From IMG/VR virus record IMGVR_UViG_3300033153_003782, positions 1 through 50,679 of that record: a stretch of DNA of 50,679 nucleotides. One strand, 5' to 3'. Source of the DNA: a virus. Its lineage: Duplodnaviria; Caudoviricetes. This document shows positions 18,379-50,679 of the stretch, in pieces; position 1 is the stretch's first letter; each line of letters begins with the position of its first letter. The position numbers and the translations under genes were made by a program. The notes under the pieces are model-generated. The model was not told where the DNA came from. It saw only the letters and a list, made by a program, of their open reading frames with translations, and did no database searches.

Positions 18379-19541
18379 TGGACCACTCGCCAATAGCGCC
18401 AAGCTCCGCCAGTGTGTGGGGCAAGCCGGGCGGCTGCACGGGCTCTGTGTCCATGCAGCAACGCTACCCCGAGGACGAGGCTATAGGCCCCGCCGCGGAA
18501 GGTACGGCGGCGCATGAGATCGCCGACCAGCTATGCGTACCCGCGAACCCCACCGAAAAAGTAAGCTTTAAGTACTTTGCGGGTCGAGCTGCCAGTAACG
18601 GCGTAATGTTCACGGAGGAAATGTTCGACGCGGCGGTGGTGCACTTTGACTCTGTGCGTGCCTTAGTTGCTTCCGATACGGCCCCCGTGGCCGGCTCGGA
18701 GACCCCGCTTAAAATGGCGAGCATTCACCCGCTAGCATACGGAACTTGTGACGCTTGGGTATATTTACCGGAAACAAAAACGCTATACATAATAGATTTT
18801 AAGTATGGCTACGGCATTGTCGAGGTTTTCGAAAATTACCAGTTGTTACTATATGTTGCGGGCGTTCTGCACGAACTCGAGAACCGTGTCGGCCGGATCG
18901 CTGGCCCGCGTGGGTCTCTTAAGATAGTAATGCGGATAGTTCAACCTCGTGCATATCATGAGGACGGGCCGGTCCGCGATTGGGAAATCGACGCGGTCGA
19001 CTTGTTGCCCTACTTCGAGACGCTAAAACGCAACGCACATATAGCATTGTCAGACGCGGCGAGTGTCGTATCGGGTGAGCACTGCGAATATTGCAGCGGT
19101 CGCCATGCATGTAAAGCGGCGCAACGTGCAGCACTCTCTTGTGTGGACTATGTCGGAAAGCCTACCCCGTTGGAGTTAGACGGCGACGCCTTGGGCTCGG
19201 AGTATGCTTTAATGAAGCGGGCCGAGTCGGCCATAAAAAACCGTTTGTCTGGACTTGAGGCGCAAGCCGAGGGACTACTGAGAAGCGGCGAAACGGTCCG
19301 CGGCTTATCGCTAGGACCGGGCCGAGGCTCGACTAAGTGGACACATGAAAAAGACGAACTTTTCGCCCTTGGCGATATGCTAGGCACGGACTTAAGGAAG
19401 CCGGCCGCAACGATCACACCAACACAAGCAAAAGACGCCGGCATGGACGCCGCGCTAGTAGCAGCTTATTCGGAAAAAATACCGGGTAAACTTAAAGTAA
19501 AAATCGATAATATAAACAAAGCAAAAAGGATATTCGGATAA
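18378..19541 (+). CDS. DUF2800 / Cas4-like PD-(D/E)XK exonuclease
   Basis: PSSA..W...C.GS, EGTAAHE, GTCD, IIDFKYG.G, QL..Y, IVQPR, G.HC.YC....C. Confidence 0.88.
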   Translation: MDHSPIAPSSASVWGKPGGCTGSVSMQQRYPEDEAIGPAAEGTAAHEIADQLCVPANPTEKVSFKYFAGRAASNGVMFTEEMFDAAVVHFDSVRALVASDTAPVAGSETPLKMASIHPLAYGTCDAWVYLPETKTLYIIDFKYGYGIVEVFENYQLLLYVAGVLHELENRVGRIAGPRGSLKIVMRIVQPRAYHEDGPVRDWEIDAVDLLPYFETLKRNAHIALSDAASVVSGEHCEYCSGRHACKAAQRAALSCVDYVGKPTPLELDGDALGSEYALMKRAESAIKNRLSGLEAQAEGLLRSGETVRGLSLGPGRGSTKWTHEKDELFALGDMLGTDLRKPAATITPTQAKDAGMDAALVAAYSEKIPGKLKVKIDNINKAKRIFG

Positions 19542-20059
19542 TGATACTCACGGGGCTTAAAACCCAATACCTAAAAACACTGACGATCACTTCAGAGGCC
19601 GAAGCTCTTGAAGCTGTGAAGCGTAACGGCTATTCTCTTCGCTACGTCAAGGAACAGACCGAGGCCGAAGCTCTTGAAGCTGTGAAGCGTAACGGCTATT
19701 CTCTTCAGTACGTCAAGGAACAGACCGAGGCTGTCTGTCTTGAAGCTGTGAAGCGTAACGGCGATTCTCTTCAGTACGTCAAGGAACAGACCGAGGCTGT
19801 CTGTCTTGAAGCTGTGAAGGAAGACGGCGATTCTCTTCAGTACGTCAAGGAACAGACCGAGGCTGTCTGTCTTGAAGCTGTGAAGGAAGACGGCGATTCT
19901 CTTCGCTACGTCAAGGAACAGACCGAGGCTGTCTGTCTTGAAGCTGTGAAGCGTAACGGCGATTCTCTTCGCTACGTCAAGGAACAGACCGAGGCTGTCT
20001 GTCTTGAAGCTGTGAAGCGTAACGGCGATTCTCTTCGCTACGTCAAGATTTTTAAATAA
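19541..20059 (+). CDS. DUF4116-type tandem repeat protein
   Basis: Seven 22-aa EAVK.nG.SL.YVKEQTE.vCL units. Confidence 0.8.
   Translation: MILTGLKTQYLKTLTITSEAEALEAVKRNGYSLRYVKEQTEAEALEAVKRNGYSLQYVKEQTEAVCLEAVKRNGDSLQYVKEQTEAVCLEAVKEDGDSLQYVKEQTEAVCLEAVKEDGDSLRYVKEQTEAVCLEAVKRNGDSLRYVKEQTEAVCLEAVKRNGDSLRYVKIFK
19595..20047 (+). repeat. 66-nt tandem repeat, ~6.9 copies
   Basis: Units start at 19595, 19661, 19727, 19793, 19859, 19925 and 19991. Confidence 0.95.
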
Positions 20060-39204: not shown

Positions 39205-39516
39205 TTAAAGTTCTAAAGCTTCTAATCTTTTGGCGAGGTCCCAGTCTAAATTGAGGGAGTTTAGCCCCGCCATTACGTCCGGGGGAAGTACCGCGCCGTG
39301 TTCCATAGCTGTAATAGCATGGCGCGGGCTACATTCAAGCCCCAATTCAAGGCCCCTGTCTATAAGTTCCTGCGCCGTGTCAAAGACTTCCACCATGTGC
39401 CGGCTTGTTACTTTATTTGTCGTAAAATCCCCCGCCATAAACTGCCCCCCGCAATGGATGAGGACGTACTTATTGTCTAGTACTAAATCTGTTTCTGTGC
39501 TGTGGTCGCATATCAT
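39205..39516 (-). CDS. Hypothetical protein coupled to the BspA-fusion gene (start MICDHS)
   Basis: ATGA overlap with the stop at 39513. Confidence 0.55.
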   Translation of the reverse strand: MICDHSTETDLVLDNKYVLIHCGGQFMAGDFTTNKVTSRHMVEVFDTAQELIDRGLELGLECSPRHAITAMEHGAVLPPDVMAGLNSLNLDWDLAKRLEALEL

Positions 39517-41588
39517 ACCGCTATGTCCCCAATAATATTCCATAATGGCGGCGCGCTGGTTAGTGTGTTTCTGTCCGCGCTCGGCGATGTGTAGATCATA
39601 TTTAAGGCTCCTAAAGTAACACCAACTTTGACCGTTTGGCCCGCGCACATAGCCAGGTAATTATCGTAATTCGTCTGCGACAGCCCGCTATCGTCGAGCA
39701 TGTTCGACATGTCCGCGACGTTGCCCACGTTCCAGCCTGTAAGGTTTTGGTTAAACGATGTCGCGCCCTTGAGCATCCAAGACATATTGGTAACGTTGGA
39801 CATGTTCCAGCCGCTAAGGTCTTGATTGAATGCCGAAGCGCCGGAGAGAATAAAGCTGGCATCTACTAACGAGTTAGTAACCCACATACTAATGTCTTGG
39901 TTGAACGTCTGGCTACCCAGCATAGCGTGCATGGTAACCATGCTGGAAACATCCCATAAATTTAATGGCTGGTTGTATGCGTTGGCACCGGCGAAAACGT
40001 GGTTGGCGGTCACGACGTTGCCGACGTCCCATGAATTTACATTCTGATTAAATATCGTGCAGCTTCTAAGCATGCCGCCTATATTTGTGGCGCTGCTCAT
40101 GTCCCAGACGCCTATAGGACGATTGAATACTGAGTTTCCGAAAAACATTTGATTAAAGTTTGTAACGTTCCCGACGTTCCAGCCCTCTAGGCCTATCCCG
40201 GTAAACGCCGTGCACCCAAAGAACATATTTACAACGCTAGTGACTGCGGACATATCCCACTGCGACACGTCCCCTGCCATTAGAACACAATTTAAGAAAG
40301 TACTATCTAAATTAGTCCCTGTAATAGTGGGGGTGTTATTGGCCGGTACGCTCCATACCATATTAGCGCAGCCACGCCATACGCTATTAAGGGGTATTCT
40401 AAAATCCGGGCCTAAACTGATCTTTTCGATTAGCTTGCTTTTATCGCCGAGGTTGTCGTATCTCCAGTCGTCTATTGTTCCGGAAATTCGAACCGTTTCG
40501 ACTCCACCCGGTCCGTAATCGTGGGTGTTAGAGTTGTTTACATTTCCGTCGCCCCAGTTCACAAGATTTCCGGCGTTCGGCGTAAATGGTAGGACTAATT
40601 GACCTGAAGGGCTGCCCGCTAGAGTAGTGTCGAAAATTGCCTCGAAATTAGGTTGTATAAAAATATTATTGCTGCTCTCTTCGGGGTCGCTTAGACCCGT
40701 AGGGTTACTGGCCGTTACTTCAGATTTAATCTCGGCTCCTGCGTCAGCTTCCACTGTAGTGTATGACTTACCAGTGGCGCCGGCTATCGGAACACCATCT
40801 CTAAGCCACTGGTAAAAATACGATGTGGGCTCATCGCTCCAAGTTCCGTTAGCGGTTTCGAGCTTTGAATCTTCAGCGCCTACACCACTAACCACGGGCG
40901 CCACGGTATTGACTGGCGCGGACGGGTCGTAATCGTATTCGGCTTCGAGGAAAATTTCACCATCTTCCCGTCTGAAAACTGTAATGTGTACTATCTCTAA
41001 TGGTTCGCCTATGTACTGCGGCGAGGATTCCACAAAATCGACAGCGAAGGCTATACGCCCCGCGATTACCTGCTCGACGCTGTTCGTCTCCTGGTCGGGC
41101 TGTAAAGTCTCAATAGATTGCGGCCAGCGAAGGGTAACAACGCCGCGCAACTGTAAAAAAGTGTTTATCGATGCCATTAAGATATTTCTAACGAGTCGTA
41201 GCGCGCGGTGCGCTTCGAGCGCTGCGTCTTTGTCTCCGGGTTGGTGTCCGTTGGCCGTGTCGGAACTCACGCCCCGGGCGTAGCAATCGATATTAAAAAT
41301 GCCGTTTGCTTTCTGCTCGTCCACGACGCCACGCGCCGAAGACTTGTCAAAATTGCTTGTGCTATACCAAACATTTATAACCGGGCGATGATCGTCGCCG
41401 GATAGGTTTTCCCAAGGGTTGGACCGTTCGGTAAAGATACGCAAATCCCACAAAGCGGGGTCTTTATTCGCCGCAGTGGCTAAGGCCATTTGATTTACTA
41501 CTTCGGTCTTAAGTATGCCCGCTATTTGGTCCCGGATAATTTCAAAATTATCTTGCTTGTCGATAAGTTGCTGCAAAACATCAGTCAT
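39513..41588 (-). CDS. Tail completion/terminator-like domain fused to Ig-like and BspA/DUF285 repeat domains
   Basis: Position before sheath; APVNTVAP..YQWLRDG..I.GAT Ig motif; repeated FNQ.l..Wdvs.vt.m..Mf units. Confidence 0.75.
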   Translation of the reverse strand: MTDVLQQLIDKQDNFEIIRDQIAGILKTEVVNQMALATAANKDPALWDLRIFTERSNPWENLSGDDHRPVINVWYSTSNFDKSSARGVVDEQKANGIFNIDCYARGVSSDTANGHQPGDKDAALEAHRALRLVRNILMASINTFLQLRGVVTLRWPQSIETLQPDQETNSVEQVIAGRIAFAVDFVESSPQYIGEPLEIVHITVFRREDGEIFLEAEYDYDPSAPVNTVAPVVSGVGAEDSKLETANGTWSDEPTSYFYQWLRDGVPIAGATGKSYTTVEADAGAEIKSEVTASNPTGLSDPEESSNNIFIQPNFEAIFDTTLAGSPSGQLVLPFTPNAGNLVNWGDGNVNNSNTHDYGPGGVETVRISGTIDDWRYDNLGDKSKLIEKISLGPDFRIPLNSVWRGCANMVWSVPANNTPTITGTNLDSTFLNCVLMAGDVSQWDMSAVTSVVNMFFGCTAFTGIGLEGWNVGNVTNFNQMFFGNSVFNRPIGVWDMSSATNIGGMLRSCTIFNQNVNSWDVGNVVTANHVFAGANAYNQPLNLWDVSSMVTMHAMLGSQTFNQDISMWVTNSLVDASFILSGASAFNQDLSGWNMSNVTNMSWMLKGATSFNQNLTGWNVGNVADMSNMLDDSGLSQTNYDNYLAMCAGQTVKVGVTLGALNMIYTSPSADRNTLTSAPPLWNIIGDIAV

Positions 41589-46970: not shown

Positions 46971-48944
46971 TCACTCGCCCGGTACGTCCAGCATCGCCTC
47001 GTAATGGTCCCAAAACATAGGCCACGAAACCTCGTCGAGTTCCAAATAATCAATACATACGGACCACGCCATTACCTCGACGGTGGCCTGCCCGTAGACA
47101 ATTAAATCCCACAGTTCATTATTTACACCAGTGGGTCTAAACCAGTAATATGAGACGCGGCCGCGGTCGTCGGTACGTTTCCGGCGGCTCTCGACCGTTA
47201 GCTCTTTTAACTGTTTATCGAGTAAGTCCACAGGTACGTTAAAATGGTACTCGCGTTGCTTGCCGTTCGCTTGGTCCCATACGCGACGCATAACCGGCGC
47301 GAGCCTGTCTTTGTAGTGGTCGACCGTTACGCGAAAGCCTTTCGTGCCAATCTGCGTTTTGAAAGGTGAAAATTCTTTTGTTACTGAACTACTCACAGCT
47401 TTGTCTTGCCCCATTATGGGGTAAACTCCACTTTCATAATCTGCGCAAAAATTACATACCGTGTCGTATGCGTACCGTGAGTCAATAAACGTCGTCGAGA
47501 TCCTATATTTTACCTTATCATTGGCGATATATTCTTTTTCCTCGATAAGTTCCCTTAACCGTGTCCACACGGGCGACTCGGGCTGTGTACAGTCCTCGTC
47601 CTCAAAGCGCCAATAGTCCACAAGAAAAGACTGCATTCCACGCGTCCAGCCCCATACCGAAACGGCTAAATTTCCTTTGTGGACGTCTACCGTGCAGGTA
47701 AGAAACAATATACGACCCCCGGTCGCGGGTACTGCTAAATTATTCGGAACGTGTCCGAGGGTGTACTCGGCGCGTCTGTGGTTTGATACCATCTCGTTAG
47801 TGATGCGGGCGCCCTGGACCGTAAACGGCATGGCCAGGACGTTATTATAAAAAACTTGGTATTTCGCCACGTCGCGGACTTTCTTTTTCTCGTGGTCATA
47901 GCCATCGAGGTACGAGGCCACAGATTTATACCAGGGTTGCATACCAATTGGCGAGTATAGCGCCGGAAGGTGATACGATCTTATATTCCGGTCTTGGGGC
48001 CGTGCGGTGGGGTTCCAGTGCGCCCCGTGGTCTAAACTAAATAGGTTTTCTTTATCGTGTTCGAAGTGTTCCGTTTGGCAGTTCTGGCACAGATAACGCA
48101 CCGACTCAGGTATCAGAATACCGTCGTCCAGGTCCCACGCGAACCCGTAGTCCTTGCCGGTCTCTTTATTCGCTCCGCTCCATCGTAATTCTTGCGGAAA
48201 GCTGCAGGACCTACACAAAACTAAATATTTGCGCTGGTCGCCGCGCTTGTAGGCTTTAAAAATTTTTGAATTATCGATTATTAAAGGCGTTGAACCTCTA
48301 AAGATTTTCCGCCGCTCCCAGTACGCGGCGCAACGGTCGTCGGATACTTTGTCCGGGTCCCCGTCTTTGCCGACCGTGTCGGGCCATGCGTCGATTTCGT
48401 CTTTCAACATTACCATAATAGAGAATGACCGCATTTTGTCGGCGTTCTTGGCGCCAAACGGGACCATGTAGCCGCCGCCTTCCCATTGGATATGATTGGC
48501 AGTTTTACCAGTCTTTCGGCTGTTGCCTTCGTCCGATGAGCGGATCGAGTCGGCAAAGCCGCTGTGATTAATCATAGGAATAAAATTGTTTTCGATACGG
48601 GCCGTGGCGAGTTCCTTGTCCGCGGTCATGTACATTATGGGCACAGTTTTAATGTGTCGCATAAAGTAGAGGAAACCGCTTTCCAATAGGGTGGAATATG
48701 TAATCTGGACACCCTTCATAAGGTTTACTTCTCGTACCGGGCTGTCGATGTCAAAGCAATCGAGTATCTCGCGCATAAACGGGTTAACGTCGTAACGGAT
48801 ATATCCGGGCATAGGTGTAACCGACTCCGGCAAATACCGGTGATCTTCGTTAAACTGCGTCGGGCTAATATGGTCTATATGGTCGGTTAAGCCCTCGATT
48901 TCATCGGCGAGCCAATCGGCGCCCACTATTTTATTTTTAGACAT
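46971..48944 (-). CDS. Terminase large subunit, GpA family
   Basis: PFMREI.D, MKGVQ..YS, DEIDAW, STP, GDQR.Y...C..C, FYN..L, TVDV, NE.WD...Y. Confidence 0.93.
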   Translation of the reverse strand: MSKNKIVGADWLADEIEGLTDHIDHISPTQFNEDHRYLPESVTPMPGYIRYDVNPFMREILDCFDIDSPVREVNLMKGVQITYSTLLESGFLYFMRHIKTVPIMYMTADKELATARIENNFIPMINHSGFADSIRSSDEGNSRKTGKTANHIQWEGGGYMVPFGAKNADKMRSFSIMVMLKDEIDAWPDTVGKDGDPDKVSDDRCAAYWERRKIFRGSTPLIIDNSKIFKAYKRGDQRKYLVLCRSCSFPQELRWSGANKETGKDYGFAWDLDDGILIPESVRYLCQNCQTEHFEHDKENLFSLDHGAHWNPTARPQDRNIRSYHLPALYSPIGMQPWYKSVASYLDGYDHEKKKVRDVAKYQVFYNNVLAMPFTVQGARITNEMVSNHRRAEYTLGHVPNNLAVPATGGRILFLTCTVDVHKGNLAVSVWGWTRGMQSFLVDYWRFEDEDCTQPESPVWTRLRELIEEKEYIANDKVKYRISTTFIDSRYAYDTVCNFCADYESGVYPIMGQDKAVSSSVTKEFSPFKTQIGTKGFRVTVDHYKDRLAPVMRRVWDQANGKQREYHFNVPVDLLDKQLKELTVESRRKRTDDRGRVSYYWFRPTGVNNELWDLIVYGQATVEVMAWSVCIDYLELDEVSWPMFWDHYEAMLDVPGE

Positions 48945-49087
48945 TGGACGGCGGCGATTATAAGAGCTATAGGGGCAATCAATAGGTACCCGAAAAATTT
49001 AGGGCTTGTAACACGTACGCGGTCGCGTACAATAATTAGCATGATTAGAACCCCACAAAGAAAATAAATCGCTAGGCCTGTTATCAT
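48926..49087 (-). CDS. 53-aa two-TM membrane protein (not in ORF track)
   Basis: ATGA coupling; two hydrophobic stretches separated by a basic loop. Confidence 0.55.
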   Translation of the reverse strand: MITGLAIYFLCGVLIMLIIVRDRVRVTSPKFFGYLLIAPIALIIAAVQCLKIK

Positions 49088-49284
49088 TTCCGGCGCCTCG
49101 CTTCGCGGCGTTGCTGGCGCTCGCGCTTACGTTTCTTTTTATCCGCTGTGCGGTATTGCGCGCGGTTGGGTGTCCGTGCTCTTACGCGCCGCGAGTAATA
49201 GACGCGCTGGAAGTTCCAGAAGTCGCGTAGCACCAGTAAAATTATAATTACGGCCGTTACGCCGATTATGTCCCAAGCTGTCAT
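49084..49284 (-). CDS. Small membrane protein with highly basic tail
   Basis: IIGVTAVIIILLVL then Arg/Lys-rich tail; GGAAGG SD. Confidence 0.65.
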   Translation of the reverse strand: MTAWDIIGVTAVIIILLVLRDFWNFQRVYYSRRVRARTPNRAQYRTADKKKRKRERQQRREARRRK

Positions 49285-49291
49285 TTTTTCA

Positions 49292-49387
49292 CTACCTTCC
49301 TTTTACATTTTTTATAGCGTCCCGAACTAAGGACACAAAACAAATTGCAGCCACAATGCCAAAGACGGTCGCGGCCGGCTCGCTCAT
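49292..49387 (-). CDS. 31-aa single-TM peptide (not in ORF track)
   Basis: ATGA coupling with the DUF5664 gene. Confidence 0.45.
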   Translation of the reverse strand: MSEPAATVFGIVAAICFVSLVRDAIKNVKGR

Positions 49388-49689
49388 TTCCCGTACTTCT
49401 CCGGGTGCATCTCGTAGTGCATTTCAAAAATTAAATTCGTTATCGCGTGGGTTAAGTGGGTCTTTGGGTCGTCGCTCTCATCGTCCGCGATGCCCGCCTG
49501 GTAATTCAGGATATGTTTCAGCGCGTGATTGATTGGCCCATTCTCTCCGTCGAGCCGGCTTTGCTGCCAGTTCCTATCCCCGTACTTAGCCGCACCATGG
49601 GCAAATACTTTTGATACCTCGAGTAAAACCTCGCCAGGTATTAGATCCAATCTAACGCCACACTTAAAACGCTTTGCCTCTGTTGTCAT
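49384..49689 (-). CDS. dATP/dGTP diphosphohydrolase domain protein (DUF5664)
   Basis: DLIP...V..V...GA.KYG.RNW, A..H, D.ES...HL.HA..N. Confidence 0.85.
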   Translation of the reverse strand: MTTEAKRFKCGVRLDLIPGEVLLEVSKVFAHGAAKYGDRNWQQSRLDGENGPINHALKHILNYQAGIADDESDDPKTHLTHAITNLIFEMHYEMHPEKYGK

Positions 49690-50570
49690 GCTTCCCTTAA
49701 TCCTTTCGATATTTTTGACTTCATTGGTCGTATAAAACTGGTAATGGTATTGCGCATTTCTTCCTCAAGCTCCAGTGCGTCACGGCCGGCGCCGTGCATT
49801 GCTATAATTCTTTTCGTCATCGTCTTACACCCGTCGGTTAAAATTTGCATGTGCGCTTTTTCGACATGATCGATAACACCGGTTTTTATTAGGTCCCGGC
49901 TAACTAGGTCCCCTTCAGACTTGCTATTCTTAATTCTTTTTTCGGCAATGTCTTCTATTACCTTGGTGGCTTTTAGCCACTCACTAAAACGTGTATCCGT
50001 CCCGAATTTTTTTACCAGGTCGACGAGGGGTAGGTGGGCGAACTCTCGGATATCCTCCGGCACGGCCAGGGCGAGCATTTTTTCCACAACCTTTTTCTCT
50101 AACTCGTCGTAGGCGTCGCCGGTTGGTAACTCCACACCAAGACGCTTTGCTCGTGCGCCTTTCTTCACTGAGCTGTCGTCACCTTTCACGCTGCCATTGG
50201 TGGTATGTAGAGTCGGCGCCGGTCGTTCGGGCTGCACGGGCGGCTCAGGGGGGGGCATGTAGAGTCGGCCTTGGGACTTTAGTGTGTCCAGAATTTTTCT
50301 AGCACGAACGTTCCCTATTCTAAATTTTTTTTCTAAAAAACCTGCTGTGTACTTCTGCGCGTCTAGCATCGCTGCGGCTGCGTCCTCGAACAATACGTCG
50401 ACGGCGTTTCTCTTATTCACAAAGTCTATAACTTCGGGGTGGGCTAAATCTATTTTCCCGTTAACGATCGACCGCGGGAACTTACCCCGGGAAATCATCT
50501 TGGAGATTGCGGACTTACTTACGCCTACTAGGGCGGCTAGCTCTTGTTTTTCTACGAAATTTGTGCTCAT
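49686..50570 (-). CDS. Putative terminase small subunit with N-terminal HTH and FtsK-gamma-like insert
   Basis: QELAALVGVSKSAISK HTH; KN...EGDLVSR Nu1-like segment; first gene after the genome end. Confidence 0.7.
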   Translation of the reverse strand: MSTNFVEKQELAALVGVSKSAISKMISRGKFPRSIVNGKIDLAHPEVIDFVNKRNAVDVLFEDAAAAMLDAQKYTAGFLEKKFRIGNVRARKILDTLKSQGRLYMPPPEPPVQPERPAPTLHTTNGSVKGDDSSVKKGARAKRLGVELPTGDAYDELEKKVVEKMLALAVPEDIREFAHLPLVDLVKKFGTDTRFSEWLKATKVIEDIAEKRIKNSKSEGDLVSRDLIKTGVIDHVEKAHMQILTDGCKTMTKRIIAMHGAGRDALELEEEMRNTITSFIRPMKSKISKGLREA

Positions 50571-50577
50571 GTCAACT

Positions 50578-50606
50578 ACTGTAGCGTTCTAATTACCATT
50601 TGTCAA
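50578..50606 (-). promoter_or_regulatory. sigma70 promoter TTGACA-N17-TACAGT, probably leaderless
   Basis: 7 nt between the -10 box and ATG 50570; no SD. Confidence 0.7.
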
Positions 50607-50663
50607 CAGCTCTTGCAGCTCGTCAACTGAGCACGAAAACACGCTTTTTGTGCGAGGGTGACG

Positions 50664-50679
50664 CGAGGCCAATCTAAAC
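50664..50679. repeat. Right copy of 16-nt terminal direct repeat
   Basis: Identical to 1..16. Confidence 0.9.

Follow-up and report, generated by a model that had tools for sequence, protein, structure and literature searches.

A wingless FtsK gamma homologue inside the probable small terminase of a cos-packaging tailed phage

Does a phage protein that carries a stretch resembling the gamma domain of FtsK use it to read a KOPS-like octamer beside the end of the genome, and what is such a protein doing there? The question is raised by one end of the window, the whole 50,679-nt stretch of viral DNA analysed here, which is an entire virus record with a completeness estimate of 100%. Site choice by small terminases is poorly understood and their genes are among the hardest in phages to annotate. 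The original prediction described a terminase small subunit in which an FtsK gamma-like winged helix would recognise the octamer or orient packaging at cos. The stretch that it flagged, 50260-50405, falls within a 294-aa minus-strand open reading frame whose product (P0001) is divided as follows:

49686-50570, minus strand: probable small terminase gene (P0001, 294 aa), an open reading frame matching PHROG 13700 over its full length (E 2e-51) and PHROG 57 over residues 4-44 (E 7e-7)
50421-50570, minus strand: N-terminal helix-turn-helix (HTH) of the MerR/Nu1/Cox type (residues 1-50), matching Pfam Phage_Cox, Phage_CI_repr and HTH_17 (E 2e-4 to 1e-3)
50268-50402, minus strand: FtsK gamma-like three-helix module without a wing (residues 57-101; helices 61-71, 76-83 and 87-99; pLDDT 83-89)
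50079-50267, minus strand: Pro-rich, low-confidence linker (residues 102-164; pLDDT below 50 at residues 121-150)
49689-50078, minus strand: helical C-terminal domain (residues 165-294), common to all relatives, with 23 invariant columns in the family alignment A1

The gamma peptide VDVLFEDAAAAMLDAQKYTAGFLEKKFRIGNVRARKILDTLKSQG (residues 57-101, nt 50268-50402) follows the N-terminal HTH and precedes the Pro-rich stretch MPPPEPPVQPERPAP. This peptide is truly homologous to the gamma domain of FtsK, but only to the three-helix core. The Pfam FtsK_gamma profile (PF09397) matches P0001 with E 1e-6 and 28.8 bits, just below the curated cut-off of 30.6 bits; a precomputed database assignment of PF09397 to P0001 also exists, and the profile matches 10 of 16 family members with a best E of 6.4e-13. 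When the profile of the family (A1) was compared with all PDB sequences, the six best entries were FtsK gamma domains (2J5P, 2J5O, 2VE8/9, 5DCF, 2IUT and 2IUS; E 4e-10 to 3e-8) and the seventh had an E of 0.044. In addition, the AlphaFold2 model, with pLDDT values of 83-89 across residues 61-100, superposes on 2VE8/2VE9 with an rmsd of 0.5-0.6 Å over 44-45 residues (Foldseek probability 1.00), a comparison that covers the P. aeruginosa gamma domain both free and KOPS-bound. The predicted placement of a gamma-like stretch between the HTH and the Pro-rich linker is thus confirmed by the Pfam search and structure prediction that had been proposed as checks (E 1e-6; rmsd 0.5-0.6 Å to 2VE8/2VE9), as well as by the PDB profile comparison.

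The description of this stretch as a winged helix holds for the three-helix core and fails for the wing. The Pfam alignment spans profile positions 3-47 of 63, and in the AlphaFold2 model no strand follows the helix at residues 87-99, the chain entering the Pro-rich linker directly. The missing part of the profile, beyond position 47, is presumably the C-terminal beta-hairpin wing, which in FtsK gamma takes part in DNA contact, and its loss is a point against DNA binding by the module. Directly after the gamma module and within the linker, the gene strand has a run of eight C residues (50248-50255, codon 106); a -1 frameshift at this run meets a stop codon immediately, for a product of 108 aa made up of the HTH and gamma module only, and a +1 frameshift would give a product of 127 aa.

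Neither Pfam nor NCBIfam gave a terminase family match to P0001 (for Phage_Nu1, none at E values up to 10 in Pfam and none in NCBIfam), so that the terminase role rests on the position of the gene, the HTH and the neighbouring cos site. The HTH is the part of P0001 that matches PHROG 57, annotated as terminase small subunit, and its Foldseek matches are P2 Cox (4LHF), a packaging-motor entry (7LW0) and excisionases. The best PHROG, 13700, which P0001 matches over its full length, is named 'FtsK/SpoIIIE-like protein' and is filed under moron/host takeover. This name mirrors the gamma module only, and the category looks misleading because the position and context of the members point to small terminases. 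Downstream of P0001, on the same strand, are genes for a large terminase (TerL) of the gpA type, a lambda-family portal, an S49 protease, a gpD-like decoration protein, a gpE-like capsid protein and a tail sheath. The large terminase is located as follows:

46971-48944, minus strand: large terminase of the lambda gpA type (GpA_ATPase, E 8e-42; GpA_nuclease, E 6e-39; PHROG 15, E 3e-132)

In relatives the small terminase gene directly abuts the gpA-type TerL gene, whereas in the window three small open reading frames (48926-49689, minus strand) separate the two, the first encoding 101 aa with a dATP/dGTP diphosphohydrolase N-terminal domain (E 5e-19) and the others 66 and 53 aa. Among the 63 relatives listed in which a TerL open reading frame was found, TerL starts within about 60 nt of the end of the small terminase gene, often overlapping it, in 57. 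The homologue in Shewanella phage SppYZU01, 37% identical to P0001 over its full length, is followed directly by the large terminase gene. The C-terminal domain is the sole part of P0001 shared with many proteins of Vibrio, Acinetobacter and Aeromonas phages that precede TerL, and an Aeromonas phage homologue of this domain is annotated as a terminase small subunit. A nucleotide search of 49000-50679 against deposited phages gave no match. The original assignment of a terminase small subunit is therefore borne out to the extent that P0001 occupies the small-terminase position beside a real cos end and contains a genuine gamma-derived module.

Elsewhere in the window, the replication module is of lytic type, with a primase, a helicase, an exonuclease, a gp2.5-like protein and a DNA polymerase. 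Within it, a 66-bp sequence is repeated seven times in tandem (19604-20019) inside an open reading frame (19541-20059, 172 aa) for which all PHROG matches are to families of unknown function. The stretch 39513-41588 (minus strand), positioned between the tail sheath gene and those of the capsid, encodes 691 aa with DUF285 repeats (E 1e-53) and, more weakly, a Hoc-like stretch.

The sequence around the genome ends was compared across 65 related viral loci, and the elements found in the window are listed here:

1-16, no strand assigned: left copy of the 16-nt cohesive-end sequence, a direct terminal repeat, CGAGGCCAATCTAAAC
50664-50679, no strand assigned: right copy of the cohesive-end sequence, identical to 1-16
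17-37, no strand assigned: variable spacer holding GGGTAGGG at 24-31 (about 20-23 nt, with no sequence conservation in relatives)
38-54, no strand assigned: cosQ-like conserved box CTACAGGACCCTTTTGG (family consensus AAAAGGTACTGT on the gene strand)
52-102, no strand assigned: two 21-nt repeats containing TGTCCCACTA, with inverted TGGGAC arms, found by repeat search
50647-50658, no strand assigned: conserved box TTTGTGCGAGGG (CCTCGCACAAA on the gene strand) beside the nick site, kept in nearly all relatives
50571-50627, minus strand: three GTTGAC repeats (plus-strand GTCAAC at 50571-50576, 50602-50607 and 50622-50627), probable HTH sites, cosB-like
50578-50606, minus strand: sigma-70-like promoter TTGACA-17-TACAGT (10 of 12 matches; the -10 box ends 7 nt before the ATG)

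Thirty-five of the 65 loci, representing 32 distinct sequences, start exactly at the homologous GTTT(T/A/G)(G/C)AT, and six more start no more than 3 nt away. The conserved start nucleotide lies about 87 nt before the terminase ATG in relatives (about 87-93 nt overall), and the ATG of P0001 lies about 93 nt inside the conserved cohesive end. In addition, four of five near-complete relatives have a 15-nt terminal repeat homologous to the 16-nt repeat of the window. By comparison of sequences, the common start and the terminal repeats indicate that the window ends at a real cos site. In the direction of the gene strand, the family layout begins with the AAAAGGTACTGT box, a spacer of about 20-23 nt and the cohesive-end sequence, and continues through a CGCnnnCCTCGCACAAA box, a pair of direct repeats and a TAnnnT box to the ATG. 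The cosQ-like box stands at the same distance in the four relatives with terminal repeats and in eight of nine aligned relative rows, including L051 and L054, which lack the gamma module; the ninth row (L052) had a false anchor in this alignment and its own box was seen in another. It is plausible that this box, 38-54 in the window, is the analogue of cosQ. The spacer is G/C-rich in all relatives seen but one (L067). Beyond the cosQ-like box, near the left genome end, GTGCTGCGCTCTG occurs three times at a spacing of 21-23 nt (146-224).

On the other side of the nick site, relatives have paired direct repeats about 10-11 nt apart where the window has its GTTGAC copies, one of which forms the -35 element of the promoter match. 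Proteins with the 'NPST' version of the HTH helix are accompanied by at least two TTGC[AG] repeats in six of nine cases, compared with 0 of 48 for other helices. Since the sequence of the repeats tracks the HTH helix, the N-terminal HTH is likely to be the reader of the paired repeats. Most relatives have a TAnnnT box 6-9 nt before the ATG, in many cases between inverted arms, one rich in G and the other in C. The hairpin-like element around this box may be a site of regulation of the terminase mRNA, which may itself be leaderless.

The gamma module is present in 53 of 66 family proteins; the 13 without it include two cut off at contig ends and one (L065) with a possible divergent copy. Module-less forms are dispersed over the C-terminal-domain tree, with 10 changes on the best tree and at least two forced by supported branches. 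These relatives keep the cohesive end, both flanking boxes, the spacer and the paired repeats. Because the module is missing from relatives with an unchanged cos layout, it is, as far as this comparison goes, accessory, and it appears not to be needed for recognition of any conserved cos element. The absence of the module from several lineages with an unchanged layout, together with the loss of the wing, could also be taken to mean that it is a decaying relic without present function, but 53 of 66 proteins, with overall identities of only 30-40%, have retained it, its DPLY motif, IG turn and an Arg (53 of 53) are strongly conserved, and its fold is predicted confidently. Decay is consequently a most improbable explanation of the module.

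The octamer of the original prediction is present as described, between the cosQ-like box and the terminal repeat: GGGTAGGG lies at 24-31, within GGGGGGTAGGGGG at 21-33 and about 8 nt from the cohesive-end sequence. This proximity, and the reading of such motifs by FtsK gamma itself (PMC2533119, PMC5052618), speak for the proposal that the gamma module reads the octamer, thereby recognising cos or setting the direction of packaging. One gamma-bearing relative (L052) points the same way, with an equally placed match of the same orientation. However, matches in the distal spacer were found in only two of 12 distinct gamma-bearing genomes with a visible spacer, the window and L052, so that ten have none and only one of the 11 genomes other than the window keeps the motif near cos; in a small sample, one of two module-less genomes (L054) also has a match, in the opposite orientation. 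As far as so few genomes allow, the motif is thus no less frequent in relatives without the insert, an outcome that the original prediction had named as counting against it. The spacer in which the octamer lies varies across the family and is rich in G and C, as noted above. Moreover, the octamer sits beyond the nick site and away from the terminase gene. In lambda, the side of cos far from the terminase gene is the last-packaged end, and by this analogy the octamer would be at the end that enters last.

The genome as a whole gives no sign of KOPS-type polarity either. The GGGNAGGG pattern has three matches in the window (two on the plus strand and one on the minus strand), compared with 5.8-7.4 expected analytically from composition, and is not skewed. 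In five near-complete gamma-bearing relatives it has 0-4 matches each, no more than a reversed-pattern control, and none near the record ends, the nearest being 2,999 nt away. Apart from members of the 66-bp tandem repeat, no other frequent and highly skewed octamer that might serve as a phage-specific guide motif was found in the genome.

The residues of the module argue in the same direction. FtsK gamma reads KOPS through N1296, R1300 and E1303 (PMC2533119). By alignment with 2J5P, the equivalents in P0001 are V88, K92 and D95, and the full N/R/E triad occurs in 0 of 53 family modules, which display 43 different triads. In contrast, the Arg equivalent to R1297, beside the triad, is kept in all 53. 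The diversity of the triad and the invariance of this Arg indicate that the reading positions are highly variable and the scaffold is conserved. With the V/K/D triad and the poor conservation of the match in relatives, the claim that the module reads GGGTAGGG at 24-31 finds no support, and we regard this reading as extremely unlikely. The octamer looks like a chance match inside a varying spacer beside the cohesive end, being neither above chance in number nor conserved, as the caveat attached to the original prediction had allowed. Single octamer matches are no basis for inferring KOPS function.

A different DNA target is hinted at in relatives, in which the gamma module could read a polar G-rich box lying on the side of the nick site nearer the gene, helping the motor to load facing into the genome; the box would have been lost or moved in the window. 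In six of 38 distinct gamma-bearing proximal arms, GGGNAGGG occurs at +57 to +65 from the start of the cohesive end, always on the coding strand and pointing into the genome, compared with none of seven module-less arms. More broadly, the proportion of arms with a 9-mer of at least six G upstream of the -10 box is 15 of 46 with the module and 0 of 12 without it (Fisher p 0.025, a figure that ignores kinship), and the GC content of the TerL region is alike in the two groups (0.499 and 0.489, respectively). Nevertheless, since there are only two supported independent contrasts, no kinship-corrected test of this association can reach significance, and three of the relatives (L007, L008 and L009) form a set of near-copies. 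The inverted repeat around the -10 box has the G-rich arm as one of its halves, which may explain the box without the module, and the window itself has no such box, with at most four G in any 9-nt stretch. A G-rich target of this kind is therefore unlikely, if less so than the octamer. Equally doubtful is the related view that a wingless gamma ring acts like the FtsK gamma ring, with a short polar G-rich box by the nick site fixing the direction of the motor. Under such a scheme, each phage would evolve its box and its reading residues together; the box of several relatives would be GGGGAGGG-like and point into the genome, and its equivalent in the window would be the G-run across the nick site. 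Two of the near-copies differ at the place beside the cohesive end, where L007 has CCCCACCCCC and L008 has GGGGTGGGGG, the G-run of the spacer appearing inverted from one to the other. Two residues distinguish the gamma helices of the pair (YN against WE).

The module might instead bind protein. In FtsK gamma, the surface that binds DNA is reported also to bind XerD, and the peptide RQFRIGYNR (1289-1297), which overlaps the DNA-binding surface, suffices for XerD activation (PMC5052618). A phage mimic of this domain could engage host XerD or another partner, for example in circle resolution, and not DNA. The corresponding peptide of P0001, KKFRIGNVR, is identical at five of nine positions and keeps FRIG..R, and one relative (L032) keeps all nine. 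However, the critical R1289 is a Lys in P0001, no tyrosine recombinase gene was found in the window, and a dif XerD-arm motif gave 13 matches at two mismatches compared with 16 expected. The lytic-type replication module also weighs against such a role, and fusion to a cos-binding protein favours a role on DNA. Mimicry of FtsK in this sense is very unlikely.

Taken together, these results make it probable that P0001 is a small terminase, that its phage, probably a virulent one, packages its DNA at cos with a head and packaging module of the lambda type, that the gamma module is an accessory DNA-contacting module and that the octamer at 24-31 is there by chance. In an arrangement of this kind, the N-terminal MerR/Nu1-type HTH would most likely read the GTTGAC repeats between the nick site and the gene, and the C-terminal helical domain would presumably form the oligomer and hold the gpA-type large terminase. 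The gamma module, carried on the flexible Pro-rich linker, could then act as an accessory second DNA-contacting module with a sequence preference that is phage-specific and is not KOPS. Several copies of the module per terminase oligomer would provide extra contacts that help the nucleoprotein complex at cos to assemble.

The comparison identifies a family of 65 viral loci whose members databases call 'hypothetical' or 'FtsK/SpoIIIE-like', and defines its cos site. It also shows that a module borrowed from the chromosome pump FtsK was added to, and sometimes dropped from, an otherwise complete terminase. Forms with and without the module, sharing the same cos layout, constitute a natural experiment on what a second DNA-binding module contributes.

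Among the known systems that come close to P0001, lambda gpNu1 is analogous in the placement of its gene. Like P0001, it has an N-terminal DNA-binding domain of the winged-HTH type; its gene is likewise found a short way inside cos, ahead of the gene for a gpA-type large terminase, and both phages have repeated sites in the stretch from the nick site to the gene. P0001 differs from gpNu1 in having no match to Pfam Phage_Nu1 and in its extra gamma module, and its cohesive end is 16 nt rather than the 12 nt of lambda.

With the gamma domains of FtsK itself (E. coli, 2J5P; P. aeruginosa, 2J5O, 2VE8 and 2VE9), the module of P0001 shares the three-helix core, the DPLF/Y start, the FRIG turn and the Arg of helix 3. 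Unlike them, it has neither a wing nor a translocase motor, lies inside a small terminase and carries the triad V/K/D in place of N/R/E.

A published precedent comes from the Bacillus phages Sam46 and Sam112, whose small terminase has been described as carrying an FtsK gamma domain (PMC8190038). The authors proposed KOPS/SRS-like terminase sites but identified no convincing set of motifs (PMC8190038). Full-text literature searches returned no description of a cos family that combines an HTH with an internal wingless gamma module. As the gamma-bearing small terminase was already published in 2021, the P0001 family is an extension of that type and not its first example. The two are alike in that a small terminase carries an FtsK_gamma domain, and they differ in several respects (PMC8190038). 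In Sam46 the gamma domain is N-terminal and is the sole recognised DNA-binding domain, whereas in P0001 it is internal and follows an HTH; Sam46 has a Terminase_2 core, whereas P0001 has no Terminase_2 match and its core belongs to no Pfam family. Finally, Sam46 packages by the headful (pac) mechanism with a gamma domain close to that of the host FtsK, whereas the phage of P0001 has cohesive ends and a gamma module in which the reading residues have diverged.
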